Shown: in pieces, positions 269 through 62,349 of the stretch
Layout: the number at the start of each line of letters is the position of its first letter
How positions within the stretch are numbered: position 1 is the stretch's first letter
Assembly: GCA_030390025.1 (NCBI GenBank)
Contig: CM059434.1
Location: forward strand, 95,108,001-95,172,000
DNA from: Squalus acanthias
Taxonomy: Eukaryota
DNA: 64,000 nucleotides
Direction of reading: 5' to 3'
Program-made: the position numbers and the translations under genes
The notes under the pieces: generated by a model
Told to the model about the DNA's origin: nothing
The model's input: only the letters and a program-made list of their open reading frames with translations
Databases searched by the model: none

Positions 269-328
269 TGACGACTACAACAAAAGGGACAACAACCACA
301 CCTATTATTGTTGTCACTACTACACCGG
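269..328 (+). CDS. PTS exon class A (60 nt, VTTTTKGTTTTPIIVVTTTP)
   Basis: ttcctaag|TG...CCGG|gtaagt. Copies start at 269, 2582, 4897, 11246, 20544, 25826, 39379. The acceptor is AAG only. Confidence 0.72.
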
Positions 329-3300
329 GTAAGTGTTGTCTGCTTTCAATATACACCAACAAGTCTCTTCACACTAGTGTGTTTTCCTCAAATTCAGCTT
401 TCAGGCAATGTCAGTCCATTAGTTCAGTCTTGCAGACCCTTGCTTTTATTGGAAAATGGGCGACATCTGAATCTGCAATTAGTTTTTTCAACATCATTTG
501 TGCAGAAAGTGTAATTAAATAGTCTCATCGAGGAACTCTACAGGAATACTAAAGGAAGTTACGTTATAGTGCAGTGATTTTGATTAATTTTTCTTGTTCA
601 GAAGGAATCACCACGACAGTAAAAGCAACTACAACTGGGTCCACTACTGGCTCCACACCGGGTGAGTGAGGGCTTCTTTTGATATCCAGTAGCAAGACCA
701 GTGACACAAGTTATCTTGTTTCAACAACTCCCAGACTGTGGAAATCCATGAATTCACTCCTTGTAGATATTTAGCCAATTTTTCTAGGGGAATTGGTTGA
801 CAACTTAACCATATGGATAAAGATAGATCAGAGGCTGTGCTGAGGACAAATGCTGTGTCCATATTTGTGCCGCCTCTGTCTCTCTTAGTCTCAGCTTAAT
901 CACCAACCTTTACTCAAGGTTTTGGCAATATTTCTCTGACTTTTGAATGAAACGTTGAATTTGCATTCCATGTTGATGGTGGTATTGTTCATACTTTCAA
1001 ATTCCAATAGCTGCATTGCCAAATATTGTCAAAGGATGATCCTCTGACATGTTGTGGTTGTTAATAGTCTTGCTTTTCTTCTTTTGTCCAGTACCTTGAA
1101 ATAGTTCTTTTGATACACAACAAATTATGCAAATATTTTCTTGCCACTCTCATGTTTATGTTGTTCTTCTCTACTTGACAGAGGAGAAAAAAGAGATCTA
1201 GTTAGTCACTCGTAAAATAATTTTCTCATTCTTTGCCCTTTATTATCAATAAAACAGCCAACTCTATTAGTACTGAGGGATTTAAATTTGATTGCTGTGT
1301 TTTGAATATTTTTCCTGTTTGTTCAGAAGTGTTGACTACAACAAAAGGGACAACAACCACACCTATTATTGTTGACACTACCACACCGGGTAAGTGATGT
1401 CTGCTTTCAATATACACCAACAAGTCTCTTCACACTAGTGTGCTTTCCTCAAATTCATGCTTTCAGGCAATGTCAGTCCATTAGTCCAGTCTTGCAGTCT
1501 TATCTTTTGACAGAAAATGGTTGAAAATTTAAGGACATCTGAATCTGCAGTTAGTTTTTCAACATCACTTTTGTAGCAACAGCAATAAAATAGTCTTACC
1601 GAAGAGATCTACAGGAATGCTATAGTTACGTTGCATTGAACTGGTTTCGATTATTTTTCTTGTTCTTCAGAAGGAATCACAACAACTGTGAAAACAACTA
1701 CAACCGGGTCCACTACTGGCTCCACACCGGGTGAGTGAGGGCTTCTTTTGATATAAAGTAGCAAGACCAGTGACACAAGTTATCTTGTTTCAACAACTCC
1801 AGACAGTGGAAGTCCATTACTTCACCCCTTAGAAAACATAGAACATTGAAAAATAGGAGCAGGAGTAGGCCATTCGGCCCTTCGAGCCTGCTCCGCCATT
1901 CAATATGATCATGGCTGATCCTCTATCTCAATACCATATTCCCGCTCTCTCCCCATACCCCTTGATGCCTTTTTTATCTAGAAATCTGTCTATCTTGTAG
2001 ATATTTAGCTCATTCCTTTCAGAGGGAAATGATTGACAACTTAACTGTATGGATAAACCAAGATCAGAGGCTGTGCTGAGGAGAAATGCTGTGTCCATAT
2101 TTGTTCTGCCTCTGACTCTCATACTCTATGCTTCCTCACCAACCTTTACTCAAAGTTTTGGCAATATTTTTCTGACTTTTGAATGAAATGTATAATTTGC
2201 ATTTCATGTTGATGGTGGTATTGTGCATACTTTCAAATTCCAATAGAAGCATTATCAAATATTTTCAAAGGATGATCCCCTTGACATGTTGTGGATGTTA
2301 ATTTTCTTCCCTTTTTGTCTATTGTCCAGTAAGTTAAAATAGTTCTTTTGAAACACAACCAATTATGCAAATGTTGTCTCGCTATTTTCATGTTTATGTT
2401 TGTTTTTTATTACTTGACAAAGGAGAAAAAAGTTGACCTAGTTAGTAGCTGTAGTGAAACATTTTCCTCATTCTTTGCACTTTAGTATCAATAAAATAAC
2501 CAACTGGTGAAACTCTCTCAATACTGCAGGAGTTCATGTTTGAGTGCTGTGGTTTTGAATGTTTTTCTTTTTCTTCCTAAGTGACGACTACAACAAAAGG
2601 GACAACAACCACACCTATTATTGTTGTCACTACTACACCGGGTAAGTGTTGTCTGCTTTCAATATACACCAACAAGTCTCTTCACACTAGTGTGTTTTCC
2701 TCAAATTCAGCTTTCAGGCAATGTCAGTCCATTAGTTCAGTCTTGCAGACCCTTGCTTTTATTGGAAAATGGGCGACATCTGAATCTGCAATTAGTTTTT
2801 TCAACATCATTTGTGCAGAAAGTGTAATTAAATAGTCTCATCGAGGAACTCTACAGGAATACTAAAGGAAGTTACGTTATAGTGCAGTGATTTTGATTAA
2901 TTTTTCTTGTTCAGAAGGAATCACCACGACAGTAAAAGCAACTACAACTGGGTCCACTACTGGCTCCACACCGGGTGAGTGAGGGCTTCTTTTGATATCC
3001 AGTAGCAAGACCAGTGACACAAGTTATCTTGTTTCAACAACTCCCAGACTGTGGAAATCCATGAATTCACTCCTTGTAGATATTTAGCCAATTTTTCTAG
3101 GGGAATTGGTTGACAACTTAACCATATGGATAAAGATAGATCAGAGGCTGTGCTGAGGACAAATGCTGTGTCCATATTTGTGCCGCCTCTGTCTCTCTTA
3201 GTCTCAGCTTAATCACCAACTTTTACTCAAGGTTTTGGCAATATTTCTCTGACTTTTGAATGAAACGTTGAATTTGCATTCCATGTTGATGGTGGTATTG

Positions 3301-6300
3301 TTCATACTTTCAAATTCCAATAGCTGCATTGCCAAATATTGTCAAAGGATGATCCTCTGACATGTTGTGGTTGTTAATAGTCTTGCTTTTCTTCTTTTGT
3401 CCAGTACCTTGAAATAGTTCTTTTGATACACAACAAATTATGCAAATATTTTCTTGCCACTCTCATGTTTATGTTGTTCTTCTCTACTTGACAGAGGAGA
3501 AAAAAAGAGATCTAGTTAGTCACTCGTAAAATAATTTTCTCATTCTTTGCCCTTTATTATCAATAAAACAGCCAACTCTATTAGTACTGAGGGATTTAAA
3601 TTTGATTGCTGTGTTTTGAATATTTTTCCTGTTTGTTCAGAAGTGTTGACTACAACAAAAGGGACAACAACCACACCTATTATTACTGACACTACCACAC
3701 CGGGTAAGTGATGTCTGCTTTCAATATACACCAACAAGTCTCTTCACACTAGTGTGCTTTCCTCAAATTCATGCTTTCAGGCAATGTCAGTCCATTAGTC
3801 CAGTCTTGCAGTCTTATCTTTTGACAGAAAATGGTTGAAAATTTAAGGACATCTGAATCTGCAGTTAGTTTTTCAACATCACTTTTGTAGCAACAGCAAT
3901 AAAATAGTCTTACCGAAGAGATCTACAGGAATGCTATAGTTACGTTGCATTGAACTGCTTTCGATTATTTTTCTTGTTCTTCAGAAGGAATCACAACAAC
4001 TGTGAAAACAACTACAACCGGGTCCACTACTGGCTCCACACCGGGTGAGTGAGGGCTTCTTTTGATATAAAGTAGCAAGACCAGTGACACAAGTTATCTT
4101 GTTTCAACAACTCCCAGACAGTGGAAGTCCATTACTTCACCCCTTAGAAAACATAGAACATTGAAAAATAGGAGCAGGAGTAGGCCATTCGGCCCTTCGA
4201 GCCTGCTCCGCCATTCAATATGATCATGGCTGATCCTCTATCTCAATACCATATTCCCGCTCTCTCCCCATACCCCTTGATGCCTTTTTTATCTAGAAAT
4301 CTGTCTATCTTGTAGATATTTAGCTCATTCCTTTCAGAGGGAAATGATTGACAACTTAACTGTATGGATAAACCAAGATCAGAGGCTGTGCTGAGGAGAA
4401 ATGCTGTGTCCATATTTGTTCTGCCTCTGACTCTCTTACTCTATGCTTCCTCACCAACCTTTACTCAAAGTTTTGGCAATATTTTTCTGACTTTTGAATG
4501 AAATGTATAATTTGCATTTCATGTTGATGGTGGTATTGTGCATACTTTCAAATTCCAATAGAAGCATTATCAAATATTTTCAAAGGATGATCCCCTTGAC
4601 ATGTTGTGGATGTTAATTTTCTTCCCTTTTTGTCTATTGTCCAGTAAGTTAAAATAGTTCTTTTGAAACACAACCAATTATGCAAATGTTGTCTCGCTAT
4701 TTTCATGTTTATGTTTGTTTTTTATTACTTGACAAAGGAGAAAAAAGTTGACCTAGTTAGTAGCTGTAGTGAAACATTTTCCTCATTCTTTTCACTTTAG
4801 TATCAATAAAATAACCAACTGGTGAAACTCTCTCAATACTGCAGGAGTTCATGTTTGAGTGCTGTGGTTTTGAATGTTTTTATTTTTCTTCCTAAGTGAC
4901 GACTACAACAAAAGGGACAACAACCACACCTATTATTGTTGTCACTACTACACCGGGTAAGTGTTGTCTGCTTTCAATATACACCAACAAGTCTCTTCAC
5001 ACTAGTGTGTTTTCCTCAAATTCAGCTTTCAGGCAATGTCAGTCCATTAGTTCAGTCTTGCAGACCCTTGCTTTTATTGGAAAATGGGCGACATCTGAAT
5101 CTGCAATTAGTTTTTTCAACATCACTTGTGCAGAAGGTGTAATTAAATAGTCTTATGGAGGAACTCTACAGGAATACTATAGGAATTTACATTATAGTGT
5201 AGTGGTTTTGATTAATTGTTCTTGTTCTTCAGAAGGAATCACAACAACAGTAAAAGCAACTACAACCGGGTCCACTACTGGCTCCACACCGGGTGAGTGA
5301 GGGCTTCTTTTGCTATCCAGTAGCAAGACCAGTGACACAAGTTATCTTGTTTCAACAACTCCCTGACTGTGGAAATCCATGAATTCACTCCTTGTAGATA
5401 TTTAGCCAATTTTTCTAGGGGGAAATGGTTGACAACTTAACCATATGGATAAAGATAGATCAGAGGCTGTGCTGAGGACAAATGCTGTGTCCATATTTGT
5501 GCCGCCTCTGTCTCTCTTCGTCTCAGCTTAATCACCAACTTTTACTCAAGGTTTTGGCAATATTTCTCTGACTTTTGAATGAAACGTTGAATTTGCATTC
5601 CATGTTGATGGTGGTATTGTTCATACTTTCAAATTCCAATAGCTGCATTGTCAAATATTGTCAAAGGATGATCCTCTGACATGTTGTGGTTGTTAATAGT
5701 CTTGCTTTTCTTCTTTTGTCCAGTACCTTGAAATAGTTCTTTTGATACACAACAAATTATGCAAATATTTTCTTGCCACTCTCATGTTTATGTTGTTCTT
5801 CTCTACTTGACAGAGGAGAAAAAAAGAGATCTAGTTAGTCACTCGTAAAATAATTTTCTCATTCTTTGCCCTTTATTATCAATAAAACAGCCAACTCTAT
5901 TAGTACTGAGGGATTTAAATTTGATTGCTGTGTTTTGAATATTTTTCCTGTTTGTTCAGAAGTGTTGACTACAACAAAAGGGACAACAACCACACCTATT
6001 ATTACTGACACTACCACACCGGGTAAGTGATGTCTGCTTTCAATATACACCAACAAGTCTCTTCACACTAGTGTGCTTTCCTCAAATTCATGCTTTCAGG
6101 CAATGTCAGTCCATTAGTTCAATCTTGTAGTCTTATCTTTTGACAGAAAATGGTTGAAAATTTAAGGACATCTGAATCTGCAGTTAGTTTTTCAACATCA
6201 CTTTTGTAGCAACAGCAATAAAATAGTCTTATAGAGGAAATCTACAGGAATACTATAGCCCAGAAATTAGGCTCCCTGGCTTCCCGCGGGTGCAAGGATC

Positions 6301-9300
6301 CCGCGCGCACCTACCTACCGCGCCTGCCGTTGACCTCTGGGCCCACGGGGACTTCAGCTCCTGGGCCTCCTGCAGCTGCAGGCGCGCAGTGCTTGTGTAT
6401 CCCGGGGCGTAGTTAGTGCGATGCGTCCCCTGGGATCACGTGGGCCATGGAGAGCCAATGGCAGCAGACCATCTTTCATTCATAGATTTGACAGGACCTG
6501 TCAAATCTATGAATTGAAATCAGCCCCAAAACAACACCTAAACTTCAAATAATTTTTTTAAAAAACCATCACATTTTTAAAATAACTATAAGTTAAATAA
6601 ATTAACTACTTTAAACAAAAATTTAAATTTTTGAAAAAGTTAAAATACTTTTTAACAGTGCTAAAAATAAACTTACCTTTCTTTAAAGTATCTAAAAAAG
6701 ATAAACCTGTTGAAATTTTTTTTAAATTGTAATTAATTAACCACTTACCTTGTTAAAAACGGGTCTTGTGCCTCCTTTTTAAAAGCGCAGCTTCTTCCAT
6801 ACTTACCTTCCCGGAGAAACCTGAAAAAAAAACTAAGTTCGCTGCGTGCGCGCAGCCTCTCCCGCGCACGCGGTTCACCTCTCAACCCCTCCCTTCACGA
6901 GACCGGAAGTTCCGGTTTCCCGCGCATGCGCAGTGCATGCAGGAAACCGGCACTTCAGGATGCCTTATGGGTGAGCACACAGCGCGTACTCACCCGGCAA
7001 GTGCCTAATTTTTGGCCCTATAGGTATTTACGTTGTATTGACCTCGTTTCGATTATTTTTCTTGTTCTACAGAAGGAATCACAACAACAGTGGAAACAAC
7101 TACAACCGGGTCCACTACTGGCTCCACACCGGGTGAGTGAGGGCTTCTTTCAATATAAAGTAGCAAGACCAGTGACAAGTTATCTTGTTTCAACAGCTCC
7201 CAGACAGTGGAGTCTCTGCTTACTCACTAACGTTTACTTAACTTTTTTGTAATATTTTATTGTCTTTTGAATGAAATGCACAATTTACAATTCATGTTGC
7301 TAGGGATACTCTGCATACTTCCAAATTCCAATACAATCATTATCAAATCTTGTCAGAGGATGCTCGCTGACACGTTGTGGCCGTTAATATTCTTTCCTAT
7401 TTTCTTTTGTCCAGTAACTTGAAAGAGTTCTTTTGAAACACAACCAATTATGCAAATGCTGCTTTGTCAGACTCGTGTTAATGTTTGCACTTTAGTATTT
7501 GAAGTAAGGAGACCTAGTTAGTAGCTGTAGTCAATAATTTCCTCATTCTTTATGCCCGTTTCTCAATAAAATAACCTAGCGGTGGAACTCTATTAATACT
7601 GCTGGATTTGCAGTCGGAATGCAGCGGTTTAAAATTTTTTTTTCTTCAGAAGTGACGACTACAACAAAAGGAACAACCACAACTGTGTCTACTGCCAGTT
7701 CTACAACTGGTAAGTGATGGTTTCTTTCAATATAGACTAGCAAGTCTTTTGACACAAGTGTGCTTTTTTCAACTTTGGCGAAGAAAATGCCAGGCCATCA
7801 GTTCAGTCCTGTAGACCTGTAGCCCATTCCTTTGGGATGGAATTACTTGAGAAGTTCAGAACATCTCAATCTGCAAGCAATGGCACTTTCACAAGAATTA
7901 CAGAAGCAGTTTTGTGTAAACCTCTCCCCTAACAGCTTGTCCCAGGCGAAGAATAAAACAGTTATGTTTTAACAGTTGCAACTGTAAAATTCCTCTCTTC
8001 TGGCCACCTCTGTCTCATTTAGTCTCTACTTATTCTCACACTCAACTTTTTTACGACATTTTTTCGACCTGCTAATAAAATGTACAATTTGTACGTCACG
8101 CTGATGCTCGTGGGCTGCATACTTCTAAATTCCAAATATTGTCAAATGTTGTTCCCTTGACATGTTGTGGTTGCTCATATTGTGACTATTACCGTTTTGG
8201 TCCAGTAGTATGAAAGACTTCTTTTGAAACACTCTGCAACTGCTGCCTTGCTGCTCTCATATTTATGTTTCCTATTTTTGGTTGGATCATGAGGGTCTAA
8301 TATGTTCTCCTCCTTTTCTGTTACAGAGGTCGTCTGCCATGGCGAATGGTCCCCCTGGTTTAATGAACACACACCTTCTAATGACAGCCCGGGCGATTCT
8401 GAATTACTAGACCGCCTAAGCAATAAATACTGTTCTTCCCCTTTTGATGACATTAGTAACATTCAGTGTCAGTTTGTTGGTGAACCTGAGAGGCCAATAA
8501 GCGAGTCACCAGACAATGTGACGTGCGACAAAGACACAGGGCTCACCTGTATAGTCTCGGAAAGTGCTTTGCAGGAGTCCAAGCTTTGTTTTGACTACAA
8601 AATTCGAGTTTGCTGCGAGAAAAAAACACCAGAGACCACAACAACCAGCAGTACAACCACGGCTTCTGGTAAATGAGAAACTTATGTACGAGTTAATAAT
8701 GTCTCCCATACGTTAAATCAAAGCTGACGTTTTACATCAAGCAGTCAAAGGAGTTAGGATATCTAGTTAGTAGCTGTAGTTAACAATTTCCTCATCATTT
8801 GTGCCTTAGTATCAATAAAATAGCCTAATGGTGAAATTCTCAATACTGCAGGATTTGAAATTAGAGTTCAGAGGTTTTGAATTTTTTGTTGTTTTTGTTC
8901 ACAAGTGGCGACTACAACAACAGAGACAACAACTACACCTGGTATTGCTGACACTACTACAACGGGTAAGTGATGTCTGCTTTCAATGTACACCAGCTAG
9001 TCTGTTTACACCAGTGTGCTTTTCTCAAATTCAGCTTTCAGACAAGGTCAGCCCATTAGTTCAGTCTTGTAGTCCCTCCCTCTTGGGTGAAAATGCTTGA
9101 AAATTTAAAGACATCTGAATCTGCAGTTAGTTTTTTCAACATCACTTGTGCAGAAGGTGTAATTAAATAGTCTTATGGAGGAACTCTACAGGAATACTAT
9201 AGGAATTTACATTATAGTGTAGTGGTTTTGATTAATTGTTCTTGTTCTTCAGAAGGAATCACAACAACAGTAAAAGCAACTACAACCGGGTCCACTACTG

Positions 9301-51300: not shown

Positions 51301-54300
51301 ACTTTCAAGTTTTTTTTTACTTGACAAAGGAGAAAAAAGTTGATCTAGTTAGTAGCTGTAGTGAAACATTTTCCTCATTCGTTGCACTTTAGTATCAATA
51401 AAATAGACAACTGGTGAAACTCTCTCAATACTGCAGGATTTCAAGTTTGAGTGCTGTGGTTTTGATTGGTTTTATTTTTCTTCCAAAGTGACGACTCCAC
51501 CAAAAGGGACAACAACGACACCTGTTATTGCTGACACTACTACACCGGGTAAGTGATGTCTTCTTTCAATATACACCAGCAAGTCTGTTCACAACAGTGT
51601 GCTTTTCTCCAATTCAGCTGTCAGGCAATGCCAGTCCATTAGTTCAGACTTGTTGCTTTTGCTGGAAAATGGTTGAAAACTTAGACACCTGAATCTGCAA
51701 TTAGTTTTTTCAACATTATTTGTGCAGAAAGTGAATTAAATAATCTTATGGAGGAACTCTACGGGAATACTATAGGAATTTACGTTGTATTGAAGTGGTT
51801 TTGATGATTTTTCTTGTTCTTCAGAAGGAATCACAACAGTGAAAACAACTACAACCGGGTCCACTACTGGCTCCACACCGGGTGAGTGAGGGCTTCTTTC
51901 GATATCCAGTAGCAAGACCAGTGACACAAGTTATCTTGTTTCAACAACTCCCAGACAGTGGAAGTCCATTACTTCACCCCTTGTAGATATTTAGCCCAAT
52001 CCTTTCAGAGGGAAATGGTTGACAAGTTAACTATTTGAATGAAGCTCGATCAGAGGCTCTGCATGAGAAATACTGTGTCCATGTTTGTGCCGCCTGTCTC
52101 TCTTAGTCTCTGCTTCCTCACCAACCTTTACTCAAAGTTTTGACAATATATCTCTGACTTTTGAATGAAATGTAGAATTTACATTTCATGTTGATGGTGG
52201 TATTGTTCATATTTTCAAATTCCAATAGAATCATTATCAAATATTGTCAAAGGATGATCCCCTTGACATGTTGTGGCTGTTAATATTCTTCCTTGTTGAA
52301 ATAGTTCTTTTGAAACACAACCAATTATGCAAATGTTGTCTCGCCACTTTCATGTTTATGTTTGTTTTTTATTACTTGACAAAGGAGAAAAAAGTTGATC
52401 TAGTTAGTATCTGTAGTGAAACATTTTCCTCATTCTTTGCACGTATCAATAAAATAGCCAACTGGTGAAACTCTCTCAATACTGCAGGAGTTGGGAAAAT
52501 GCTGGAATCTATTGTAAAGGATGCAATAACTGGGCACTTAGAAACTAATAGTAAGATTGGGCAGAGTCAACATGGATTTATGAAAGGGAAATCCTGTTTG
52601 ACAAACCTATTGGAGTTCTTTGAGGATGTAACTAGTGGAGTAGACAAAGGGGAACCGGTAGGTGTGGTGTATTTGGATTTTCAGAAGGCCTTCGATAAGG
52701 TCCCACACAAGAGGTTGGTGAACAAAGTTAGGGCACATGGAATTGGGGGTAATATACTAGCATGGATTGAGAATTGCTTAACAGACAGAAAACAAAGAGT
52801 AGGGATAAACGGGTCTTTTTCAGGATGGCAGGCTGTGACTAGTGGGGTACCGCAAGGTTCAGTGCTTGGGCCCCAGCTATTCACAATCTATATCAATGAT
52901 TTGAATAAGGGGACTAAATGTAACATTTCCAAATTTGCTGACGATACAAAGCTAGGTGGCAGCGTCAGTTGTGAAGAGGATGTGAAGAGGCTTCAAGGGG
53001 ATCTCGACAGGCTCAGTGAGTGGGCGAGAACATGGCAGATGGAATATAATGTGGATAAATGAGAAGTTATGCACTTTGGTAGAATAAACAGAAAGGCAGA
53101 GTATTTCCTAAATGGTGAAAGATTGGGGAATGCAGATGCTCAAAGGGACCTGTGTGTCCTTGTACATGAGTCACTGAAAGTGAATGTGCAGGTGCAGCAA
53201 GCCATTAGGAAGGCAAATGGTATGCTGGCCTTCATTACAAGAGGATTTGAGTACAGGAGTAAAGAAGTCTTACTCCAATTATATAGGGCCTTGGTGAGAC
53301 CACACCTGGAGTACTGTGTACAATTTTGGTCTCCTTACCGAAAGGAAGGATATACTTGCCATAGAGGGAGTGCAACGAAGGTTCACAAGATTGATTCCTG
53401 GGATGGCGGGACTGTCGTATGAGAAGAGATTGAGTAAACTAGGCCTGTATTCACTTGAATTCAGAAGAATGAGAGGGGATCTCATTGAAGTATACAAAAT
53501 TATTACAGGGCTTGATAGGGTGGATGCTGGGCGAATGTTTCCCTTGGCTGGGGAGTCTAGAACCAGGGGCCACAGCCTCAGGATAAAGAGTAGGCCATTC
53601 AGGACTGAGATGAGAAGAAATTTCTTCACACAGAGGGTGGTGAATCTTTGGAATTCTCTACCCCAGATGGCTGTGGAGGCTCAGTCATTGGGTATATTCA
53701 AAACAGAAGTCGATAGATTTCTGACTAGTAAGGGCATCAAGGGATATGGTCCAAAAATGTGTGGGTTAGGTTGATTTGGCTATGATAAATTGACCCTTAG
53801 TGTTAGGGGGGGATTAAATATGTGGGGTTATGGGGATAGGATGGGATATGTTAGGGGGAATTAAATACGTGGGGTTACGGGGGTAGGGTGGGATATGTGT
53901 ACTGTGGGGATTAAAGCAGAGACAGGGTACTGGATTTGGATGATCAGCCATGATCGTATTGAATGGCGGAGCAGGCTCGACGGGCCGAATGGCCTACTCC
54001 TGCTCCTAGATTCTATGTTTCTATGTGATAGGGCCGGTGAATGGAGTTGAGGCAGAAGATCAGCCATGATCTCATTGAATGGCGGAGCAGGCTCAAAGGG
54101 CCGAATGGCCTAATCCTGCTCCTATTTCCTATGCTCTTATGTTCTTAGTTCAAGTTTGAGTGCTGTGGTTTTGATTGATTTTATTTTTCTTCCGAAGTGA
54201 CGACTCCACCAAAACGGACAACAACGACACCTATTATTGCTGACACTACTACACCGGGTAAGTGATGTCTGCTTTCAATATACACCAGCAAGTCTGTTCA

Positions 54301-57300
54301 CACCAGTGTGCTTTTCTCCAATTCAGCTTTCAGGCAATGCCAGTCCATTAATTCAGTCTTGCAGACCCTTGCTATTGTTGGGAAATGGTTGAAAACTTAG
54401 ACATCTGAATCTGCAATTAATTTTTTCAACATCATTTGTGCAGAAAGTGTAATTAAATAATCTTATGGAGGAACGCTACAGGAATACTATAGGAATTTAC
54501 GTTATAATGTTGTGGTTTTGATTAATTTTGTTGTTCTTCAGAAGGAATCACCACAACAGTGAAAGCAACTACAACCGGGTCCACTACTGGCTCCACACCG
54601 GGTGAGTGAGGGCTTCTTTCGATATCCAGTAGCAAGACCAGTGACACAAGTTATCTTGTTGCAACAACTCCCAGACAGTGGAAGTACATTACTTCACTCC
54701 TTGTAGAAATTTAGCCCAATCCTTTCAGAGGGAAATGGTTGACAACTTAACTATATGGATAAACCTAGATCAGAGGCTGTGGTGAGGAGAAAAGCTGTGT
54801 CCATGTTTGTGCCACCTCTGTCTCTCTTAGTCTCAGCTTAATCACCAACATTTACTCAGATTTTTGACAGTATATCTATGACTTTTGAATGAAACGTATA
54901 ATTTGCATTTCATGTTAATGGTGGTATTGTTTCAAATTCCAGGGACTGGATTTTACCTTTTGGTGCAGACTAGGGGCGGGACAGCTTCCTTACGGGTTCC
55001 GATCCCACCCCCAATGACGTCCGACGCACAGACGCTATTTTGCATCAATTGACCTTGTTAAGCCCGCCCTGCGGGCTTGCCAGCCAATTAAGAGAAAGCC
55101 GGTGTCAGATGACGTCAGTTGATGATGCATCATCTGCTGGTTTTCTTAAAGGGGCCACACTCAATTTTTTTTGACAGGTGATTTTTCAGTGTTTGACAGC
55201 ATTGAGGTGCTGCAAACACTGACAATCACTGTACAAAGGTGAGCCCTTGCACCCAGACCCTCCAGTGACTCCCTCCTTAGGCTAGAACAGATGGCAGCTA
55301 CAGGTGAGGTTACAGAAGCGATCTGTCACTGGTGAGAGAGGTTATCCCAATGAGGTGGGACTACACAAACACTTCAAAACTTATTACCTACAGAAAAGAC
55401 TAACTACATTAAAAATGATTTTCCCAACATTTTCTTACCTCTGAAACTCACCAGTGTACCATTGGATCCTTCACACCACTTCTGCTGCTGTCATCAATGA
55501 AGAAACATTACAGTAGACCCACAGCACGCGACACTAACCCTGGCATGGTGTCCGGATGTCGGGAAGCCTGCAGTAGACCTGGCAAAATTGGAAAAAGCCT
55601 CTTAACTGCCTGTTAACATCCTGTTAACAAGCAGTTAAGTACCTATAATCTTCTTCCCACCGCGAGATGTCGGGTCCATGCGCAATTCGAGGACCCGACA
55701 CCTGGGAAGATTGTTTGGAGGCGGGTCGACAGCGAATTTCTGACCCGGTCAATCTTTGCGATTTTGCTGGATGTCCCACCTCCAAACCGCCCCCTGAGCG
55801 CCGGCAAAATTCCGGCCCAATAGAATCATTATCAAATATTGTCAAAGGATGTTCCCCTTGACCATGCTGTGGTTGTTACTATTCTTGCTTTTCATCCTTT
55901 GTCCAGTACTTTGATGTAGTTCTTTTGGTACACAACGAATTATGCAAATATTGTCTTGCCATTAGTTCAGTCTTGGAGAGCCTTTCTTTCCGGTGAAAAT
56001 GGTTGAAAACTTAGACATCTACAGTTAGTTTTTTCAACATCACTTGTGCAGAAAGGGTAATTAAATAGTCTTATGGTGGAACGCTACATGAATACTATAG
56101 GAATTTACGTTGAGGTGAGTTGTTTTGATAAATTTTGTTGTTCTTCAGAAGGAATCACTACAACAGTGAAAGCAACTACAACCGGGTCCACTACTGGCTC
56201 CACACCGGGTGAGTGAGGGCTTCTTTCGATATACAGTAGCAAAACCAGTGACACATCTTGTTTCAACAGCTCCCAGACAGTGGAAGCCCATTACTTCACA
56301 CCTTGTAGATATTTAGCTCATTCCTTCCAGAAAGAAATGATTGACAACTTAACTATATGAATAAACCTAGATCAGAGGCTGTGCTGAGGAGAAATGCTGT
56401 GTCCATGTTTGTATCGCCTCTGTCTCTCTTAGTGTCTGCTTCCTCACCAACATTTATTCAACGTTTTGACAATATATATCTGACTTTTGAATGAAATGTA
56501 CAATTTGCATTTCATGTTGATGGTGGTATTGAGTATACTTTTAAATTCCAATAGAAGCATTATCAAATATTGTCAAAGGATGATCCCCTTGACATGTTGT
56601 GGTTTTTAATATTCTTCCCTTTTTGTCTATTGTGCAGTAACTTGAAATAGTTCTTTTGAAACACAACCAATTATGCAAATATTGTCTCGCCATTTTCATG
56701 TTTATGTTTGGTATTTTTACTTGACAAAGGAGAAAAAGTTGATCTAGTTAATAGCTGCAGTGAAACATTTTCCTCATTCTTTGCACTTTAGTATCAATAA
56801 AATACCCAACTGGTGAAACTCTCTCAATACTGCAGGATTTCAAGTTTGAGTGCTGTGGTTTTGACTTTTTATTTTTCTTCCGAAGTGACGACTCCACCAA
56901 AAGGGACAACAACCACACCTGTTATTGCTGACACTACTACACCGGGTAAGTGATGTCTTCTGGTGGAACTCTACAGGATTACTATAGGAATTTATGTTAA
57001 GGTCAATGTTCCCTCTACGTTTTTTTTGTACTGAGCAGGCCACGAACTCCTTTGACCACGACCTTTTTGTCTGTGGGCAAATTGTACAACAACAACTTTT
57101 ACAACAACATCTTTTACACCAACAACGGCAGCAGCATCAACCACATAAAAGCATAGATACAGTAATTCCATAATACCACCCCACCTTCTCAAATTGAGAC
57201 AATCAGACAAGGTTCTATACAAGTTTAACATAACCTCTCTGCTTTTGAATTCGATTCCTCTAAAAATGAACCCCAGTGCTTCATTTGCAATTTTATGGCT

Positions 57301-60300
57301 TTTTTAACCTGTGTTGCTACTTTAATGATTTGTGAATCTATACTCCTAGATCCCTTCGCACCTCTACTCCATTTAGTCTCTTATTTTCCAAGGAGTAGGT
57401 CGCCTCCTTATTCCTCCTACCAAAATGCACCACCTCGCACTTATCTGTATTGAAATTCGTTTGTCATTTACATGCCCATTCTGCAAGTTTGTTTAAGGTA
57501 AAATTAACCTCACTTTCCCATATTTTTTTTCCGGCTTTAAACAATTTTCCCGAATTAAAAAAAAAATTCTCATATTTTTGTGTCTGACAAAGGCAACCTT
57601 TGTTGCCCCCCAGGCGGTTTGAATTCTTCAGCAGACAGATGTGCGAATTGGGTTGGCCTGTAGAAAGTGAGGTGCCTCAACATTTCTAAAAATATAAACC
57701 CGACGCCAGAATTCTGATTTTCAAAATTAAGCTCCAATTTTCCCCACTTTTTAATGTGATTAAGGTTTTTATGAACTTTCATCAGCAACAAGACTAAAAC
57801 CATAAATCCACCCCGGTGCAATATTGGATTTAGTAAAAAGTAGCAAATAAAAGAAAGTTAAGCTTGTGTTATTCACTCTTCTTCCCTCTGCTAAAATGCT
57901 CCCTTGCTTCACCTAATGATTGAAAGCCTGATCTTACAAACCCATCTGCAGTAGGATCATTTTATTTTAAAAAGCGCATTCAGTACAGCTCAAAATTCGC
58001 ACAAACTCGTTTCCTCTCCTAAAACATGTCACTGACAGCAACAAAGTCCCATCTTTCTCACCTGTTGCAGGTAAAACTCGGCGGCTCACTCACCCGCAAC
58101 AGGTTTAATAAGATGAGGTACACCTGGTTATCTAGCGAGCTCTCCCACCGATTTTTAAATCTTCGTCCCCAGGCCCATGGAGGTGGTTGACTGCACTGAG
58201 TTGGCCCCGCTCAGACTGGCCCCAGGCCGCACTCAGACCGGCACTGCTCAGAAAAGGCCCCTGCTCCGATTTGCCCCGCATAGGAAAGGCCCCGCTTAGA
58301 CTGGCCCCGCGGAGTTTGTGTAAAACCGGCCCCGGAACCGTGGCGCCAAAGGAGAAGGAGAGAGACGCTGCCCTCATCACCATGGCAACCGGCTGAGCTC
58401 CGCTCCTCGACAGCTTCTGCCTGCAGCACCTGGAACTTCCCCGAGAGCAACACAACCAGCCCCCTCACTCACCCACCCACTCCCTCAGCGTGTGGCCACG
58501 GCTCCAACTCTTTTTCTCACGTTCCAATTGGGATTGGCTCTGAGGTCGCAAGACTCGTAAACAACTCAGTCTGCATTCCGGCCCCTCCCCCGCTCCGGCT
58601 GTCCCGGCCCCTCCCCGCTGTCCCGGCCCCTCCCCCGCTCCGGCTGTCCCGGCCCCTCCCCCGCTGTCCCGGCCCCTCCCCCGCTCCGGCTGTCCCGGCC
58701 CCTCCCCCGCTCCGGCTGTCCCGGCCCCTCCCCCGCTCCGGCTGTCCCGGCCCCTCCCCCGCTCCGGCTGTCCCGCTCTCTGCGCGCCATTTAATTTGAA
58801 GTGCGCACGAACTCAGGGACGTATGAGCAGCCGCGCACCTGTGGAGGGAACCGTGGTTAAGGTGTCGGGATTTTCATTATTTTTCTTGTTCTTCAGAAGG
58901 AATCACTACAACAGTGAAAGCAACTACAACCGGGTCCACACCGGGTGAGTGAGGGCTTTTTTCCATATCCAGTAGCAAGCTCAGTGACACAAGTTATCTT
59001 GTTTCAACAACTTCCAGACAGTGGAAGCCCATTACTTCACACCTTGTAGATATTTAGCCCATTCCTTTCAGAGAGAAATGGTTGAAAACTTAATGATTTG
59101 AATGAAGCTCGATCGGAGGCTGCGCCTGAGGAGAAATGCTGTGTCCATGTTTGTGCCACCTCTGTCTCTCTTAGTCTCGGCTTACTCACCAACTTTTACT
59201 CAACGTTTTGCCAAGCTTCTCTGACTTTTGAATGAAATGTACAATTTGCATTTCATGTTGATGGTGGTACTGTGCATACTTTGAAATTCCGATACAATCA
59301 TTATCAAATATCATCAAAGGATGTTCCCCATGACATTTTTTTATTCCTTCATGGGGTGTGGGTGTCGCTGACCAGGCCAGCATTTATTGCCCATTCCTAA
59401 ATGCCCTTGAGAAGGTGGTGGTGGTGAGCTGCCTTCTTGAACGACTGCAGTCCGTGTGGTGAATGTACTCCCACAGTGCTCTTAGGGAGCGAGTTCCAGG
59501 GTTTTGACCCAACGACTATGAAGTAACAGCCCTATATTTCCAAGTCAGGATGGTGTGCGACTTGGAGGGGAACTTGCAAGTGATGGTGTTCCCATGTGCC
59601 TGCTGTCCTTGTCCTTCTAGGTGGTAGAGGTCGCGGGTTTGGGAGGTGCTGTCGAAGAAGCCTTGGCGAGTTGCTGCAGTGCATCTTGTGGAACACACTG
59701 CAGCCACGGTACGCCAGTGGTGGAGGGAGTGAATGTTTAAGGGGCTGGATGGGGTGCCAATCAAGCAGGCTGTTTGTCCTGATTGGTGTTAAGCTTTTTG
59801 AGCATTGTTGGTGCTGCATTCATCCAGGCAAGTGGAAAGTATTCCATCACACTCCTGACTTGTGCCTTGTAGATGGTGGAAAGGCTTTGGGGAGTCAGGA
59901 GGTGAGACACTCGCCGCAGAATACCTAGCCTCTGACCTGCTCTTGTAGCCACGTTATTTATGTGGCTGGTCCAGTTAAGTTTCTGGTCGATGGTGACTCC
60001 CAGGATGTTGATGGTGGGTGATTCGGCGATGGTAATGCCATTGAATGTCAAGGGGCGGTGGTTAGACTCTCTCTTGTTGGAGGTGATCATTTCCTGGCAT
60101 TTTCTTCTTCACTATCAACCACACGGCCAATTGTTGGAGGTGATCATTTCCTGGCATTTTCTTCTTCACTATCAACCACACGGCCAATTTTTGTATCATC
60201 TGAAAACTTCTTAATCATGCTCCCTACATTGAAGTCTAAATCATTGATATATACCACAAAAAGCAAGGGACCCAGTACTGAGCCCGGCGGAACACCACTG

Positions 60301-61376
60301 GAAACAGCCTTCCAGTCACAAAAACACCTGTTGTCCATTACCCTTTGCTTCCTGCCACTGAGCCAACTTTGGATCCAACTTGCCACTTGCCCTTGGACCC
60401 ATGGGCTTTTACTTTTCTGACCAGTCTACCATGTGGGACTTTGTCAAAAGCCTTGCTAAAATCCATGTAGGCTGCATCAACCGTGCTACCGTCATCGACC
60501 CTTCTTGTTACCTCCTCAAAAAAATCAGTCAAGTTAGTCAGACATGATCTTCCCTTAACAAATCCATGCTGACTATCCTTGATTAATCCATGCCTTTCTA
60601 ACTGACGATTAATACTTTCCCTCAGAATTTTTTCCAATAATTTTCCCACTACCGAGGTTAGGCTGACTGGCTTGCAATTACTCAGTCTATCCCTTTCTCC
60701 CTTTTTAAACAATGGTATGTTCGCAGTCCTCCAATCCTTCGCCACCACTCCTGTAGCCAGAGAGGATTGGAAAATGACAGTCAGAGCCTCTGCTATTTCC
60801 TCCTTTCTTGGCAAAATGAGAAAAAAGTTAATCTAGTTATTGCTGTAATAAAAACCTTTCCTCATTTTTTTCTACTAAAGTATCAATAAAATAGCCTACT
60901 GGTGAAACTTTCAATACTGCAGGATTTGAAATTAGATTGCTGAGGTTTTTAATAATTCTTCTTCTTCAGAAGTGACGACTACAACAAAAGGGACGACAAC
61001 CACACCTGTTATTGCTGACACTACTACAACGGGTAAGTGATGTCTTCCTTCAATATACACCAGCTGGTCTGTTCAGACCAGTGTGCTTTTCTCCAATTCA
61101 GATTTCGGACATTGCCAGTCCATTAGTTCAGTCTTAGACCCTTCCTTTTAGGAGGAAATGTTTGAAAATTTGAAGATATCCAAATCTGCACTTAGTTTTT
61201 TCAACATCACTTTTGCAGCAAGAGCAATAAAATAGTCTTTTGGTGGAACACTACAGGAATACTATAGGAATTTACATTGTATTGTAGTGATTTTGATTCA
61301 TTTTCTTGTTCTTCAGAAGGAACCGCTACAACAGTGATAGTAACTGCAACCGGGTTCATTACTAGTTCCACACCGG
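269..61376 (+). CDS. Gel-forming mucin (MUC2/MUC5-like), internal PTS + CysD region; spliced, about 87 exons in window, partial at both ends
   Basis: Repeated short Thr-rich frames bounded by polypyrimidine-AG and G|GTAAGT or G|GTGAGT, all phase 1-1, join into one stop-free frame. They are interspersed with 10 CysD exons (WSPW...C.DYKIRVCC). The paralog cannot be assigned without the VWD domains. Confidence 0.9.
602..661 (+). CDS. PTS exon class B (60 nt, EGITTTVKATTTGSTTGSTP)
   Basis: ttcag|AAGGAATC...CCGG|gtgagt. Copies start at 602, 2915, 5233, 9253, 14534, 18551, 23833, 29349, 33368, 37386, 42668, 46688, 50708. Confidence 0.85.
1327..1389 (+). CDS. PTS exon class A' (63 nt, EVLTTTKGTTTTPII[V/T]DTTTP)
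   Basis: gttcag|AAGTGTTG...CCGG|gtaagt. Copies start at 1327, 3641, 5960, 9990, 15261, 19288, 24570, 30076, 34095, 38123, 43395, 47415. Confidence 0.85.
1671..1730 (+). CDS. PTS exon class B' (60 nt, EGITTTVKTTTTGSTTGSTP)
   Basis: cttcag|AAGG...CCGG|gtgagt. Copies start at 1671, 3985, 10334, 19632, 24914, 38467. Confidence 0.85.
1831..1993 (-). mobile_element. 5'-truncated CR1-like LINE 3' end (about 163 bp), copy 1
   Basis: The minus strand encodes the RT C-terminus IDRFLDKKGIKGYGE, then a 3'UTR stem (gggccgaatggcc) and a (TTCTATG)-like tail. The empty site ttcaccccttgtagat is at about 51975. Possible CTT duplication. Confidence 0.85.
4146..4308 (-). mobile_element. CR1-like 3' fragment copy 2
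   Basis: Same sequence and position in the B'-A intron. Confidence 0.85.
6257..7018. mobile_element. Non-autonomous TIR element (MITE, PIF/Harbinger-like), 762 bp, copy 1
   Basis: TIRs (G/A)GCCCAGAAATTAGGC and GCCTAATTTTTGGCCC, with a 3-bp TAT duplication. The empty site ggaatactataggaattt occurs in paralogous introns (e.g. 5171, 51764). GC-rich ends, AT-rich core. Confidence 0.85.
7073..7132 (+). CDS. PTS exon class B'' (60 nt, EGITTTVETTTTGSTTGSTP)
   Basis: ctacag|AAGG...CCGG|gtgagt, starting 55 nt after each MITE. Copies start at 7073, 12354, 16371, 21653, 27169, 31188, 35208, 40488, 44508, 48528. Confidence 0.85.
7650..7709 (+). CDS. PTS exon class C (60 nt, EVTTTTKGTTTTVSTASSTT)
   Basis: cttcag|AAGTG...ACTG|gtaagt, always the exon before CysD. 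Copies start at 7650, 12931, 16948, 22230, 27746, 31765, 35784, 41065, 45085, 49105. Confidence 0.85.
8327..8668 (+). CDS. Mucin CysD (Mucin2_WxxW) exon, copy 1
   Basis: ttacag|AG GTC...TCT G|gtaaat, 342 nt. Translates EVVCHGEWSPWFN...GDSE...CDKDTGLTC...CFDYKIRVCC followed by a Thr tail, matching the CysD motif pattern. Confidence 0.93.
8906..8965 (+). CDS. PTS exon class D (60 nt, VATTTTETTTTPGIADTTTT)
   Basis: ttcacaag|TG...ACGG|gtaagt, always the exon after CysD. Copies start at 8906, 14187, 18204, 23486, 29002, 33021, 37039, 42321, 46341, 50361. The acceptor is AAG only, with an in-frame internal CAG 18 nt downstream. Confidence 0.7.
10495..10657 (-). mobile_element. CR1-like 3' fragment copy 3
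   Basis: Same sequence and position in the B'-A intron. Confidence 0.85.
11538..12299. mobile_element. MITE copy 2
   Basis: Same TIR, TSD and site as copy 1. Confidence 0.85.
13608..13949 (+). CDS. CysD exon copy 2
   Basis: Same translation and splice sites as copy 1. Confidence 0.93.
15556..16316. mobile_element. MITE copy 3
   Basis: Same TIR, TSD and site as copy 1. Confidence 0.85.
17625..17966 (+). CDS. CysD exon copy 3
   Basis: Same translation and splice sites as copy 1. Confidence 0.93.
19793..19955 (-). mobile_element. CR1-like 3' fragment copy 4
   Basis: Same sequence and position in the B'-A intron. Confidence 0.85.
20837..21598. mobile_element. MITE copy 4
   Basis: Same TIR, TSD and site as copy 1. 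Confidence 0.85.
22907..23248 (+). CDS. CysD exon copy 4
   Basis: Same translation and splice sites as copy 1. Confidence 0.93.
25075..25237 (-). mobile_element. CR1-like 3' fragment copy 5
   Basis: Same sequence and position in the B'-A intron. Confidence 0.85.
25914..26135. mobile_element. Short palindromic Penelope-like insertion (222 bp)
   Basis: 12-bp TSD TTCAATATACAC (25902-25913 and 26136-26147). Perfect 94-bp inverted repeat (25946-26039 and 26043-26136). It accounts exactly for the extra 234 bp of this unit and contains a hammerhead core. Confidence 0.85.
26041..26080 (+). ncRNA. Minimal type I hammerhead ribozyme motif
   Basis: CAC-CUGAGGA-A-GGAGC(aaucgaua)GCUCC-GAAA-GC-UU-GUG: conserved core, helix II, palindromic AGCU helix III and a 3-bp helix I. 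Confidence 0.7.
26353..27114. mobile_element. MITE copy 5
   Basis: Same TIR, TSD and site as copy 1. Confidence 0.85.
28423..28764 (+). CDS. CysD exon copy 5
   Basis: Same translation and splice sites as copy 1. Confidence 0.93.
30373..31133. mobile_element. MITE copy 6
   Basis: Same TIR, TSD and site as copy 1. Confidence 0.85.
32442..32783 (+). CDS. CysD exon copy 6
   Basis: Same translation and splice sites as copy 1. Confidence 0.93.
34392..35153. mobile_element. MITE copy 7
   Basis: Same TIR, TSD and site as copy 1. Confidence 0.85.
36460..36801 (+). CDS. CysD exon copy 7
   Basis: Same translation and splice sites as copy 1. Confidence 0.93.
38628..38790 (-). mobile_element. CR1-like 3' fragment copy 6
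   Basis: Same sequence and position in the B'-A intron. Confidence 0.85.
39672..40433. mobile_element. MITE copy 8
   Basis: Same TIR, TSD and site as copy 1. Confidence 0.85.
41742..42083 (+). CDS. CysD exon copy 8
   Basis: Same translation and splice sites as copy 1. Confidence 0.93.
43692..44453. mobile_element. MITE copy 9
   Basis: Same TIR, TSD and site as copy 1, with a few private substitutions. Confidence 0.85.
45762..46103 (+). CDS. CysD exon copy 9
   Basis: Same translation and splice sites as copy 1. Confidence 0.93.
47712..48473. mobile_element. MITE copy 10
   Basis: Same TIR, TSD and site as copy 1. Confidence 0.85.
49782..50123 (+). CDS. CysD exon copy 10
   Basis: Same protein as copy 1, with one synonymous CTC>CTA change at 49999. 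Confidence 0.93.
51042..51276. mobile_element. Second palindromic Penelope-like insertion, different family
   Basis: 13-bp TSD CAATTATATAAAT (51029-51041 and 51277-51289). Imperfect inverted repeat of about 100 bp (51038-51244) plus a short tail, with a hammerhead core. Confidence 0.85.
51144..51182 (+). ncRNA. Minimal type I hammerhead ribozyme motif
   Basis: CAGUU-CUGACGA-A-GGGUC(auc)GACCU-GAAAC-GUU-AACUG: intact core, 5-bp helix I and palindromic ACGU helix III. Confidence 0.8.
51489..51548 (+). CDS. Diverged A-type PTS exon
   Basis: ttccaaag|TG ACG ACT CCA CCA AAA...CCGG|gtaagt, 60 nt. Confidence 0.65.
51825..51881 (+). CDS. Diverged B-type PTS exon (57 nt, one codon deleted)
   Basis: cttcag|AAGGAATCACAACAGTG...CCGG|gtgagt. 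Confidence 0.8.
52493..54146 (+). mobile_element. 5'-truncated CR1-type LINE, decayed RT ORF2, composite 3' end
   Basis: RT motifs QHGF, LDFQKAFDKVPH, GVPQGSVLGP and KFADDTK, with a stop at 53060-53062 and a frameshift near 53340. AGTT duplication at 52489-52492 and 54147-54150. Two successive CR1 3' tails. Confidence 0.93.
53748..53905 (+). mobile_element. SINE core fragment nested in the CR1 3' end
   Basis: gggttaggttgatttggctatgataaattgacccttagtgt resembles, from memory, the V-SINE/HE1-type core. It interrupts the CR1 after KGIKGYG and is followed by G-rich tandem subrepeats. Confidence 0.55.
54198..54257 (+). CDS. Diverged A-type PTS exon
   Basis: ttccgaag|TG...CCGG|gtaagt, 60 nt. Confidence 0.65.
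54542..54601 (+). CDS. Diverged B-type PTS exon
   Basis: cttcag|AAGG...CCGG|gtgagt, 60 nt. Confidence 0.8.
54942..55818 (+). mobile_element. Non-autonomous Harbinger-like TIR element
   Basis: Imperfect TIRs GGGACTGGATTTTACC and GGCAAAATTCCGGCCC interrupt the intron motif aaattccaatagaatc. 55040-55270 is homologous, inverted, to 63780-64000. Confidence 0.75.
56149..56208 (+). CDS. Diverged B-type PTS exon
   Basis: cttcag|AAGG...CCGG|gtgagt, 60 nt. Confidence 0.8.
56886..56945 (+). CDS. Diverged A-type PTS exon
   Basis: ttccgaag|TG...CCGG|gtaagt, 60 nt. Confidence 0.65.
57205..57492 (-). mobile_element. Internal CR1 ORF2 fragment inside the hAT-like element
   Basis: caaggttctatacaagtttaacataacc...caaaatgcaccacctcgcacttatc is the reverse complement of the CR1 region homologous to 53020-53300 and adjoins the sequence seen at 62320-62349. 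Confidence 0.75.
58578..58775. repeat. GC-rich minisatellite, 26-bp unit CCGGCCCCTCCCCCGCTCCGGCTGTC, about 8 units
   Basis: Direct reading; two units are shortened to 19-20 bp. Confidence 0.92.
58897..58944 (+). CDS. Diverged B-type PTS exon (48 nt, four codons deleted)
   Basis: cttcag|AAGG...GGGTCCACACCGG|gtgagt; in-frame 12-nt loss between TCCAC repeats. Confidence 0.78.
59336..60098 (-). mobile_element. LINE 3' part (CR1/L2-group, second family), decayed
   Basis: Minus-strand ORF ILGVTIDQKLNWTSHINNVATRAGQRLGILRR...IYKAQVRSVMEY is typical of the post-RT region; A-rich end at about 59336. Confidence 0.85.
60074..60187. repeat. 57-bp perfect tandem duplication
   Basis: ttgttggaggtgatc...acacggccaa at 60074-60130 and 60131-60187. 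Confidence 0.93.
60100..60808 (-). mobile_element. CR1 LINE RT fragment, frameshifted
   Basis: Minus-strand ORFs with PVSLTSVVGKLLE, QHGF, DFSKAFDKVPH, GVPPGSVLGPLLF and KFSDDTKIG. Confidence 0.92.
60970..61032 (+). CDS. Diverged A-type PTS exon (63 nt)
   Basis: cttcag|AAGTGACG...ACGG|gtaagt. Confidence 0.8.
61317..61376 (+). CDS. Diverged B-type PTS exon (EGTATTVIVTATGFITSSTP)
   Basis: cttcag|AAGG...CCGG|gtgagt, 60 nt. Confidence 0.78.
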
Positions 61377-61751
61377 GTGAGTGAGGGCTTCTTTCGACAT
61401 ACAGTAGCAAGACCAGTGACACAAATTATCTTGTTGCAACAACTCCCAGACAGTGGAAGTCCATTATTTCACCCCTTGTAGATATTTAGCCCAATCCTTT
61501 CAGAGGGAAATGGTTAAAAACTTAACCACTTGAATGAAGCTAGCTCAGAGACTGTGCCTCAGGAGATATACTGTGTCCACGTTTGTGCCACCTCTGTCTC
61601 TCTTAGTCTCTACTTGTTCACCAACCTTTACTCAACATTTTTTAAATATTGTCCTGATATTTGAATGAAAGGTAAAATTTGCATTTTGTGTTGATGGTGG
61701 TAGTACTCTGCATTTTTTCCAATTCCAAGAGAATCATTATCAAATATTATA

Positions 61752-62349
61752 TACATAGAATTACATAGAATATACAGCACAGAAACAGGCCATTCGGCCC
61801 AACCAGTCCTTGCCAGCGTTTATTCTCCACTTGAGCCTCCTCCCGTCTTTCCTCATCTAAATCTATCAGCATAACCCTCTATTCCCTTCTCCCTCATATG
61901 CTTGTCTAGCCTCCCCTTAAATGCATCTATATTATTCGCTTCAACCACTCCCTGTGGTAGCGAGTTCCACATTCTTACCACTCTCTGGGTAAAGAAGTTT
62001 CTTCTGAATTCCCTATTTGTGTTCCTGGTGACTATCTTATATTGATGGCCTCTAGTTTTGCTTTTCCGCAGAAGTGGAAACACTCTCCGTCTGTCTACTC
62101 TATCAAAACTTTTCATAATTTTAAAGCCCTCTATTAGATCACCCCTCAGCCTTCTCTTTTCAAGAGAAAAGAGACCCAGCCTGTTCATCCTTTCCTGATG
62201 GGTTTAACCTCGCATTTCTGGTATCGTCCTTGTAAATCTTTTTTGCTCCCTCTCCAGTGCCTCTATATCCTTTTTATAATATGGTGACCAGAATTGTATG
62301 CAGTACTCCAAGTGTGTCTAGCCAAGGTTCAATACAAGTTTAACACAAC
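61752..62349 (-). mobile_element. CR1 LINE 3' end
   Basis: Minus-strand ORF LGLFSLEKRRLRGDLIE...RNFFTQRVVRMWNSLP, followed by a 3' stem and a ttctatgta tail. Confidence 0.92.

Follow-up and report, generated by a model that had tools for sequence, protein, structure and literature searches.

Human and mouse MUC19 have many small mucin-domain exons, and cassette splicing is known for Xenopus FIM-B.1. Chicken Muc13 contains at least 12 near-identical 20-residue PTS repeats, one per exon, for which the available text proposes length control by splicing and recombination (PMC1552070). The gel-forming MucXS/Otogl of Xenopus tropicalis has a multi-exonic central domain with 34 PTS and 39 Cys-rich repeats, and the accessible part of the report describes one dominant long RT-PCR product that was sequenced (PMC5789918). 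For chicken MUC2, the available sections describe PTS cassettes over exons 32–44 and one characterised in-frame splice event, with none detected upon infection (PMC3549977). Schistosoma SmPoMuc is described, in the open portion of its report, as having 27-bp repeat exons in ~1-kb genomic repeats with >94% intron identity (PMC2576457). The mucin domain of human MUC2/5AC/5B/6 lies in one exon, according to the available text (PMC9712336).

The accessible parts of the literature on the Muc19 family describe spiggin as a Muc19 ortholog (PMC2180178), three Muc19 paralogs in the ghost shark (Lang et al. 2016, PMC4948705), and CysD as a Muc2/Muc5 feature (PMC4948705). In a single-nucleus study of dogfish skin, the available text names muc19, paralog unspecified, among the mucosal-cell markers (PMC13558645). 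The idea that mucin length is set by splicing within one animal is not new, since it was proposed for chicken Muc13 in 2006 (PMC1552070, available text) and has stood as a proposal since then. Our literature search, which mostly covered sources other than subscription papers and supplements, where exon maps may exist, returned no long-read test of this idea and no paper on the exon structure of a shark Muc19-type gene.

Results

Exon array and splice sites

The 64-kb window (the whole stretch of Squalus acanthias DNA analysed here, 64,000 nt) has 40% GC and 0 N. The donor-anchored splice scan returned 121 rows, and removal of 34 second-donor rows left 87 exons (Table 1). All 34 B-type donors (34/34) have a second GT 4 nt downstream (e.g., at 662-669), the use of which would shift the frame. 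Among the 77 PTS exons, 62 are 60 nt, 13 are 63 nt, one is 57 nt, and one is 48 nt long, and each of the 10 CysD exons has 342 nt. Phase 1-1 was found in 87/87 exons and GT-AG borders in 86/86 introns, with intron lengths of 237–2316 nt. The spliced chain of 8,064 nt (2,688 codons) contains no stop; the longest unspliced plus-strand stretch without a stop has 197 codons. The PTS exons encode 1,548 residues (Thr 51%, Ser 6%, Pro 6%), the composition of a Pro/Thr/Ser-rich mucin, with one repeat unit per exon, in frame, as in the multi-exonic mucin domains of the Muc13/MucXS type. The exons comprise 25 distinct sequences, and 13 of the 87 exons are unique.

Table 1. Positions of exons, cassettes and insertions in the window.
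Feature	Position	Strand	Remarks
Exon array, central PTS/CysD region of gel-forming mucin	269-61376	+	87 phase 1-1 exons, 86 GT-AG introns, 2,688 codons; continues beyond left edge
5′ PTS-only run	269-6022	+	11 alternating A-type/B-type exons (60-63 nt); four-exon unit repeating at ~2.3 kb
160-nt intronic insertion	1831-1990		6 copies, amplified with units
Ten higher-order cassettes	6259-50767	+	F-D-CysD-E-B core plus one or three more PTS exons; CysD-to-CysD spacing 4,017-5,516 nt
MITE-like insertion (~760 nt) in intron, bounded by terminal inverted repeats	6259-7017		10 copies, one per cassette, last to 48472
CysD exon 1	8327-8668	+	342 nt, WSPW motif, 8 Cys, PF13330, weakest donor CTG/GTAAAT
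CysD exon 2	13608-13949	+	
A-type exon with acceptor and 5′ end of one subtype, 3′ end of other	15261-15323	+	Likely within-exon crossover product, in frame
CysD exon 3	17625-17966	+	
CysD exon 4	22907-23248	+	
Single-copy intronic insertion with 97-nt hairpin (99% complementary)	25914-26135		Between 12-nt direct repeats, one cassette only
CysD exon 5	28423-28764	+	
CysD exon 6	32442-32783	+	
CysD exon 7	36460-36801	+	
CysD exon 8	41742-42083	+	
CysD exon 9	45762-46103	+	
CysD exon 10	49782-50123	+	One synonymous difference from other nine
Diverged 3′ PTS exons	51489-61376	+	n=9, including in-frame shortened 57-nt (51825-51881) and 48-nt (58897-58944) exons; introns with single-copy insertions
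Broken LINE reverse-transcriptase fragment (RVT_1), intronic	52494-54146	+	
Fused intron, B-downstream piece joined to A-downstream piece	54602-56148	+	Sole B-to-B junction, in frame
Broken LINE fragments, intronic	59340-60803	-	RVT_1 at 60338-60829
Post-array sequence unlike repeat unit	61749-64000		No mucin exon; probably repeats within longer intron
Broken LINE fragment	61853-62203	-	

Tandem CAG/AAG acceptors are present at 57 acceptors, so that exon lengths can also be read as 3 nt shorter. In 20/87 cases the acceptor is AAG: exons that have no proximal CAG use the AAG 3 nt on, and the frame is kept. The PTS donors are near consensus, and the CysD donor is the weakest. In the B exon at 50708-50767 the last base is A instead of G, which gives a weaker donor and an altered junction residue.

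The window revealed no decayed or overlooked exon copies: blastn gave no off-exon match longer than 14 nt, and of the 2,534 tblastn matches 7 lay off-exon, all weak. The window contained no VWD or cystine-knot exon and no flanking gene, and the both-strand scan gave no minus-strand exon candidate among the matches listed. Tandem Repeats Finder, with a period limit of 500, misses the array.

These results support the view that the window contains the central domain of a gel-forming mucin built of symmetric exons. An earlier note on this DNA had described 77 PTS exons of 48–63 nt and a 342-nt CysD exon, all phase 1-1, and the splice scan and the stop-free joined chain bear this out. Its statement that subsets of exons can be lost or duplicated without a frameshift also holds, all 87 exons being symmetric. 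Its expression “symmetric micro-exons” is right in the first word (87/87 phase 1-1) and not in the second, since 48–63 nt exceeds most working definitions of a micro-exon.

From the sequence, we infer that the exons are probably spliced in. Internal exon indels are multiples of 3 in 3/3 cases; for intron indels the figures are 7/42 and 1/55 in pairwise, non-independent comparisons. Trinucleotide slippage in ACA/ACT runs could be an alternative cause of in-frame exon indels. Among diverged copies, dN/dS was 1.63 for A-like and 0.57 for B-like exons and is uninformative. Exon divergence (0.143, 0.079) is only slightly lower than intron divergence (0.12–0.20), and amino-acid constraint on the PTS exons is weak. 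The freedom of exons from insertions was rejected as a sign of selection, since exons make up 13% of the span and insertions are few. Exon use is better argued by comparison among sharks than by indels or dN/dS, because the same units occur in a sawshark model.

The weak amino-acid constraint, together with the missing VWD and cystine-knot exons of the window and the fact that the gene is known here from DNA alone, could also fit a non-expressed or pseudogenised tandem repeat. However, the 87 exons, including the diverged 3′ copies, have no stop, frameshift, or lost splice dinucleotide, and the repeat units are conserved in sawshark; we consider a pseudogene barely credible and favor an array of exons that are in use.

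CysD exons

Nine of the ten CysD exons are identical. Their PF13330 match scores 63.1 bits against a cut-off of 22.4, covers the full profile, and includes the WxxW motif, which identifies a CysD domain. The solved CysD domains of MUC5B, MUC5AC, and MUC2 match the window CysD in a sequence search (E 1.9e-11 to 5.8e-7). The MUC2 CysD has five disulfides, according to the available text (PMC3195396). Instead of the ten Cys of this human five-disulfide arrangement, the shark CysD has 8 Cys and is a variant of the domain. The shark CysD exon also carries two N-glycosylation sequons, at residues 18 and 63. At the CysD acceptors (e.g., 8325-8329), a CAGAG context creates an out-of-frame acceptor 2 nt downstream, corresponding to a 340-nt form.

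Placement in the Muc19 family

A protein search with the CysD gave six matches, all from sharks. The window CysD is 81% identical to that of sawshark and 67–71% identical to those of lamniform sharks and catshark. The sawshark model P0008 splits into 76 pieces, of which 67 have 19–21 residues and 4 are 114-residue CysD, in the same alternating units.

Since the window has no N-terminus, the Muc19 placement was made by proxy, via a sawshark protein with shared repeats. This protein, P0002, is among the closest relatives sharing the repeats and contains three N-terminal VWD-C8-TIL assemblies; sawshark P0004, with the same repeats, has a C-terminal cystine knot and no fourth VWD. The sawshark VWD1–3 are 43–47% identical to MUC19 proteins and 36–40% identical to MUC5/MUC2-type proteins. 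In a quick tree of the N-terminal region (32 rows, none a verified MUC6; outgroups SCO-spondin, hemocytin, and a tunicate protein), a clade (SH-aLRT 100, branch 0.93) unites P0002 and seven further elasmobranch rows with the MUC19 proteins of coelacanth, reptile, mammals, and polypterids. Muc2 and Muc5 form separate clades, and the shark proteins fall outside the Muc2/Muc5 group. A 50-row tree without outgroup agrees with the Muc19 grouping. By this proxy, the gene is likely an elasmobranch Muc19-family mucin. A MUC5-type identity was rejected by the N-terminal tree. The earlier note had contrasted the locus with MUC5B/MUC5AC; this is the wrong comparison because the closest relatives lie in the Muc19 clade, in which the isoform models of one mammal also vary by small in-frame units.

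The mammalian-type Muc19 architecture, with neither a fourth VWD nor CysD, does not apply here: CysD is present, and the fourth VWD varies among relatives. This architecture is not defining outside mammals, since spiggins depart from it too (PMC4948705, available text). Given that CysD has been described as belonging to Muc2/Muc5, a branch of Muc19 rich in CysD adds modestly to this picture. Our comparison points to an expanded Muc19 family with CysD in sharks and rays, mostly labelled mucin-2 or mucin-5AC in databases, and suggests that small-exon mucin domains are shared across Muc19, from sharks to mammals.

Among the database proteins P0001–P0062 and P0252–P0257, sharks and rays seem to have several Muc19-clade paralogs, often on one chromosome. 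The basking shark P0007 model runs into the start of the next paralog. Over 19 residues, the predicted C-terminal tail of great white P0001 matches intronic sequence of the window at 61141-61197 with 63% identity (E 0.004), so this model probably ends in a mis-called intron; the match is a weak hint of a possible homologous intron in great white.

Origin of the array and intronic insertions

The introns that flank exons of types A, B, D, and E can be aligned with each other, indicating that the PTS exons are descendants of one exon-plus-intron unit. Between cassette cores, introns included, there are 0–12 substitutions per 3,071 columns (mean 0.19%). The ten cores represent 10 distinct haplotypes, and by the four-gamete test 12 of the 15 pairs of informative sites are incompatible, as in a mosaic. 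The fusion of B-downstream and A-downstream sequence in intron 54602-56148 indicates the in-frame loss of an A-type exon at the DNA level.

Such near-identity raises the question of whether the exon number was inflated or scrambled by misassembly. The cassettes are 99.8% identical including introns, one of the 45 core pairs has no substitution, and mosaic patterns could arise from two mixed haplotypes. However, all ten cores (10/10) differ as haplotypes, one with a private insertion, and independent shark assemblies have like arrays (basking shark P0007 with 9 CysD, and sawshark P0008). Even if the count were off, the architecture would be no artefact. We consider misassembly highly improbable. 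The cassettes show a pattern of repeated unequal crossing-over or conversion, though haplotype mixing in the assembly may contribute. The DNA thus records copy-number change, in the mosaic cassettes and the in-frame exon deletion, in agreement with the variation by copy number that the earlier note had put forward.

Several insertions were amplified or acquired in the introns. The ~760-nt element ends ~55 nt before an acceptor and was amplified together with the cassette. The 160-nt insertion (1831-1990) presumably resembles a shark SINE/LINE tail; a search of Rfam gave 0 matches, this insertion included. The hairpin insertion at 25914-26135 is either a young element or a fold-back event. A 1.9-kb insertion at 57000-58855 contains a GC-rich 26-nt minisatellite (58578-58775), and most of the A-downstream intron is lost there. 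More insertions unlike the repeat unit lie at 54942-55816, 51043-51277, and 62330-64000, with Pfam and Rfam blank where tested. In Pfam, 4 of the 6 repeat-like ORFs had no match.

Alternative splicing

Combinatorial splicing would be a major, regulated source of variation if cells adjusted the length of the brush and the number of cross-links by leaving out PTS and CysD exons. All exons are symmetric, which is compatible with such skipping, and the earlier note had taken symmetry as pointing to it. However, the phase 1-1 cases are one inherited fact and are not independent, because the PTS-type introns align and there are only 25 distinct exon sequences. Tandem exon duplication survives only if the phase is symmetric. 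Symmetry was inherited with the duplicated unit and is required by tandem exon duplication anyway, and it is therefore not evidence for splicing. We rejected it as a sign of combinatorial splicing, since it permits skipping without showing any.

Database isoform models of this kind rest on RNA-seq alignments. We compared ten sets (eight elasmobranch species, one reedfish), with at most 15 of up to ~49 models listed per locus; 4 cluster members (other species or partial models) were left out beforehand. Among the isoforms listed, 71/126 differ from the longest of their set by one in-frame block, a point in favor of skipping. The other 55/126 are complex and lie outside the junction count, for which only simple one-block events were used. 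The blocks are commonly of 13–21 residues or multiples thereof, whole CysD exons, or one residue, and the differences start after residue 1218, beyond the VWD3 region. These in-frame blocks in the relatives’ models indicate that the design of small symmetric exons is probably family-wide.

Individual relatives also argue for skipping. In models of the sister paralog, sawshark and catshark lack the unique first CysD exon, and sawshark and epaulette shark lack the last one. The catshark relative that belongs to the window’s own clade shows 20- and 97-residue skips with new junctions as well as one-residue variants, and vampire-bat MUC19 models drop in-frame units of 10–18 residues, again with new junctions. 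The weakest donor in the window is that of the CysD exon. Frog FIM-C.1 is described, in the available text, as highly polymorphic by alternative splicing (PMC7177656).

On the other hand, the isoforms are automatic predictions without abundance, and the PTS donors are strong. Identical cassettes, the introns of which were copied with the exons, would be hard for sequence-specific regulators to distinguish. For frog MucXS and chicken MUC2, the accessible texts describe little skipping (PMC5789918, PMC3549977). Among the 69 blocks of more than one residue, another site of the longest isoform is identical to the 24-residue skip junction in 23/69 cases and matches it with at most 2 mismatches in 35/69, a pattern like that of mis-mapping, and about half of these 69 simple skips could be mapping artefacts. 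For 25/69 skip junctions, every stretch of the longest isoform shows at least 4 mismatches; these junctions and the unique CysD exons skipped in two species each point to real skipping. Judging from the models, some skipping of exons is likely in the design of this gene family. We consider it unlikely that skipping is a major and regulated source of variation, and favor copy number in this role.

The splicing question is testable by ordinary RNA-seq, since most odd-numbered skips give junctions absent from the genome order. In 82 of 85 single-exon skips, the resulting 40-nt junction is absent from the 24 adjacent junctions; single-exon skips mostly give new junctions because the exon types alternate. 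Among the other odd-numbered skips, 78–79 of 79–83 likewise yield new sequences. Skips of six exons, on the scale of a whole cassette, give new junctions in only 33/80 cases. Within the spliced array, 13% of 100-nt reads are unique, and ~1.5 kb is needed for all reads to be unique. The earlier note had suggested following exon paths by copy-specific SNPs, which would mostly fail, with 9/10 CysD exons identical and 13/87 exons unique.

Intronic stops and poly(A) hexamers

An in-frame stop (TGA) lies at most two codons past the donor in 84/87 exons, and AATAAA or ATTAAA occurs in 86/86 introns (329-61316), mostly at a homologous site 79–92 nt upstream of the acceptor. Read-through at a donor might use this ladder of stops and poly(A) signals to produce shorter mucins that lack the cystine knot and cap the polymers. 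In line with this, the longest stretch free of variation ahead of 7 A-like exons is TCAATAAAA, which includes the hexamer, and of the 16 elasmobranch models that stop within the PTS region, 6 have GK or GE as their last residues, one of them a numbered catshark isoform. However, stop and hexamer each come from one ancestral unit, so that their counts are not independent, and an intron of this kind would contain a hexamer by chance with a probability of 0.19–0.62. The B exons are preceded by an invariant run of equal length that does not correspond to a poly(A) signal, and GK/GE ends are also expected where predictions are cut short at assembly gaps. Where strong donors lie close by, intronic poly(A) sites are normally suppressed, and the PTS donors of the array are strong. 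Because of the single ancestral origin, the unrelated run at B exons, and the similar appearance of truncated predictions, we hold this ladder to be very unlikely.

Discussion

We favor, as the probable reading, an elasmobranch Muc19-family central domain that arose by tandem exon duplication, varies mainly by copy number, and tolerates low-level skipping. The DNA shows that one Thr-rich exon of phase 1-1 was duplicated, intron included, into A and B types. AB pairs were then amplified, followed by 4.0/5.3-kb cassettes together with a CysD exon, and the copies were homogenised by unequal crossing-over or gene conversion. CysD number and length would vary mainly via copy number, between alleles and between species. 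Judging from the isoform models of relatives, low-level in-frame skipping and one-residue variation at tandem acceptors are probably tolerated by-products.

A more far-reaching idea is that elasmobranch Muc19-family mucins are RNA-level rheostats, in which each tissue would adjust brush length and the number of cross-links by regulated omission of PTS exons and of the CysD exon with its weak donor, combined with the stop and poly(A) ladder as a source of knot-less chain terminators. If this were true, one allele would give mucus gels of different mesh size. We regard this idea as rather improbable and return to copy number as the main source of variation. The locus nevertheless offers a resolved array for an RNA-seq test of mucin length set by splicing.

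The nearest known systems are the elasmobranch Muc19-like genes (sawshark P0002/P0008/P0004, catshark P0013, great white P0001, and basking shark P0007), which have the same CysD and carry the database names mucin-2-like, mucin-5AC-like, and mucin-19-like. Their isoform models vary by whole units, and the sawshark units of 19–21 residues alternate; the exon boundaries of these relatives are inferred from proteins and not from DNA. The window differs from them in its 10 near-identical CysD cassettes and is identical to no protein returned.

Mammalian MUC19/PSM/BSM and stickleback spiggin belong to the same clade as the shark proteins in the N-terminal tree. Mammalian MUC19 has no fourth VWD (PMC4948705, available text), whereas CysD is present in many of the shark members and a fourth VWD in some. 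Human MUC2, MUC5AC, and MUC5B have PTS interrupted by CysD, as in the window, but they belong to a different clade and have a single mucin-domain exon.

Outside this family, chicken Muc13 is unlike the window in being a transmembrane SEA mucin with no CysD, and MucXS is unlike it in that its Cys-rich repeats are not CysD. The flanking modules of FIM-C.1/FIM-B.1 (trefoil) and of SmPoMuc (SmPoMuc-specific) also differ from those of the window. The polydispersity of FIM-C.1 and SmPoMuc is backed by transcripts, in contrast to the shark gene, for which genomic DNA is our only source. The exon-per-repeat layout is already known in several mucins, and the array described here is a further example of this known design.
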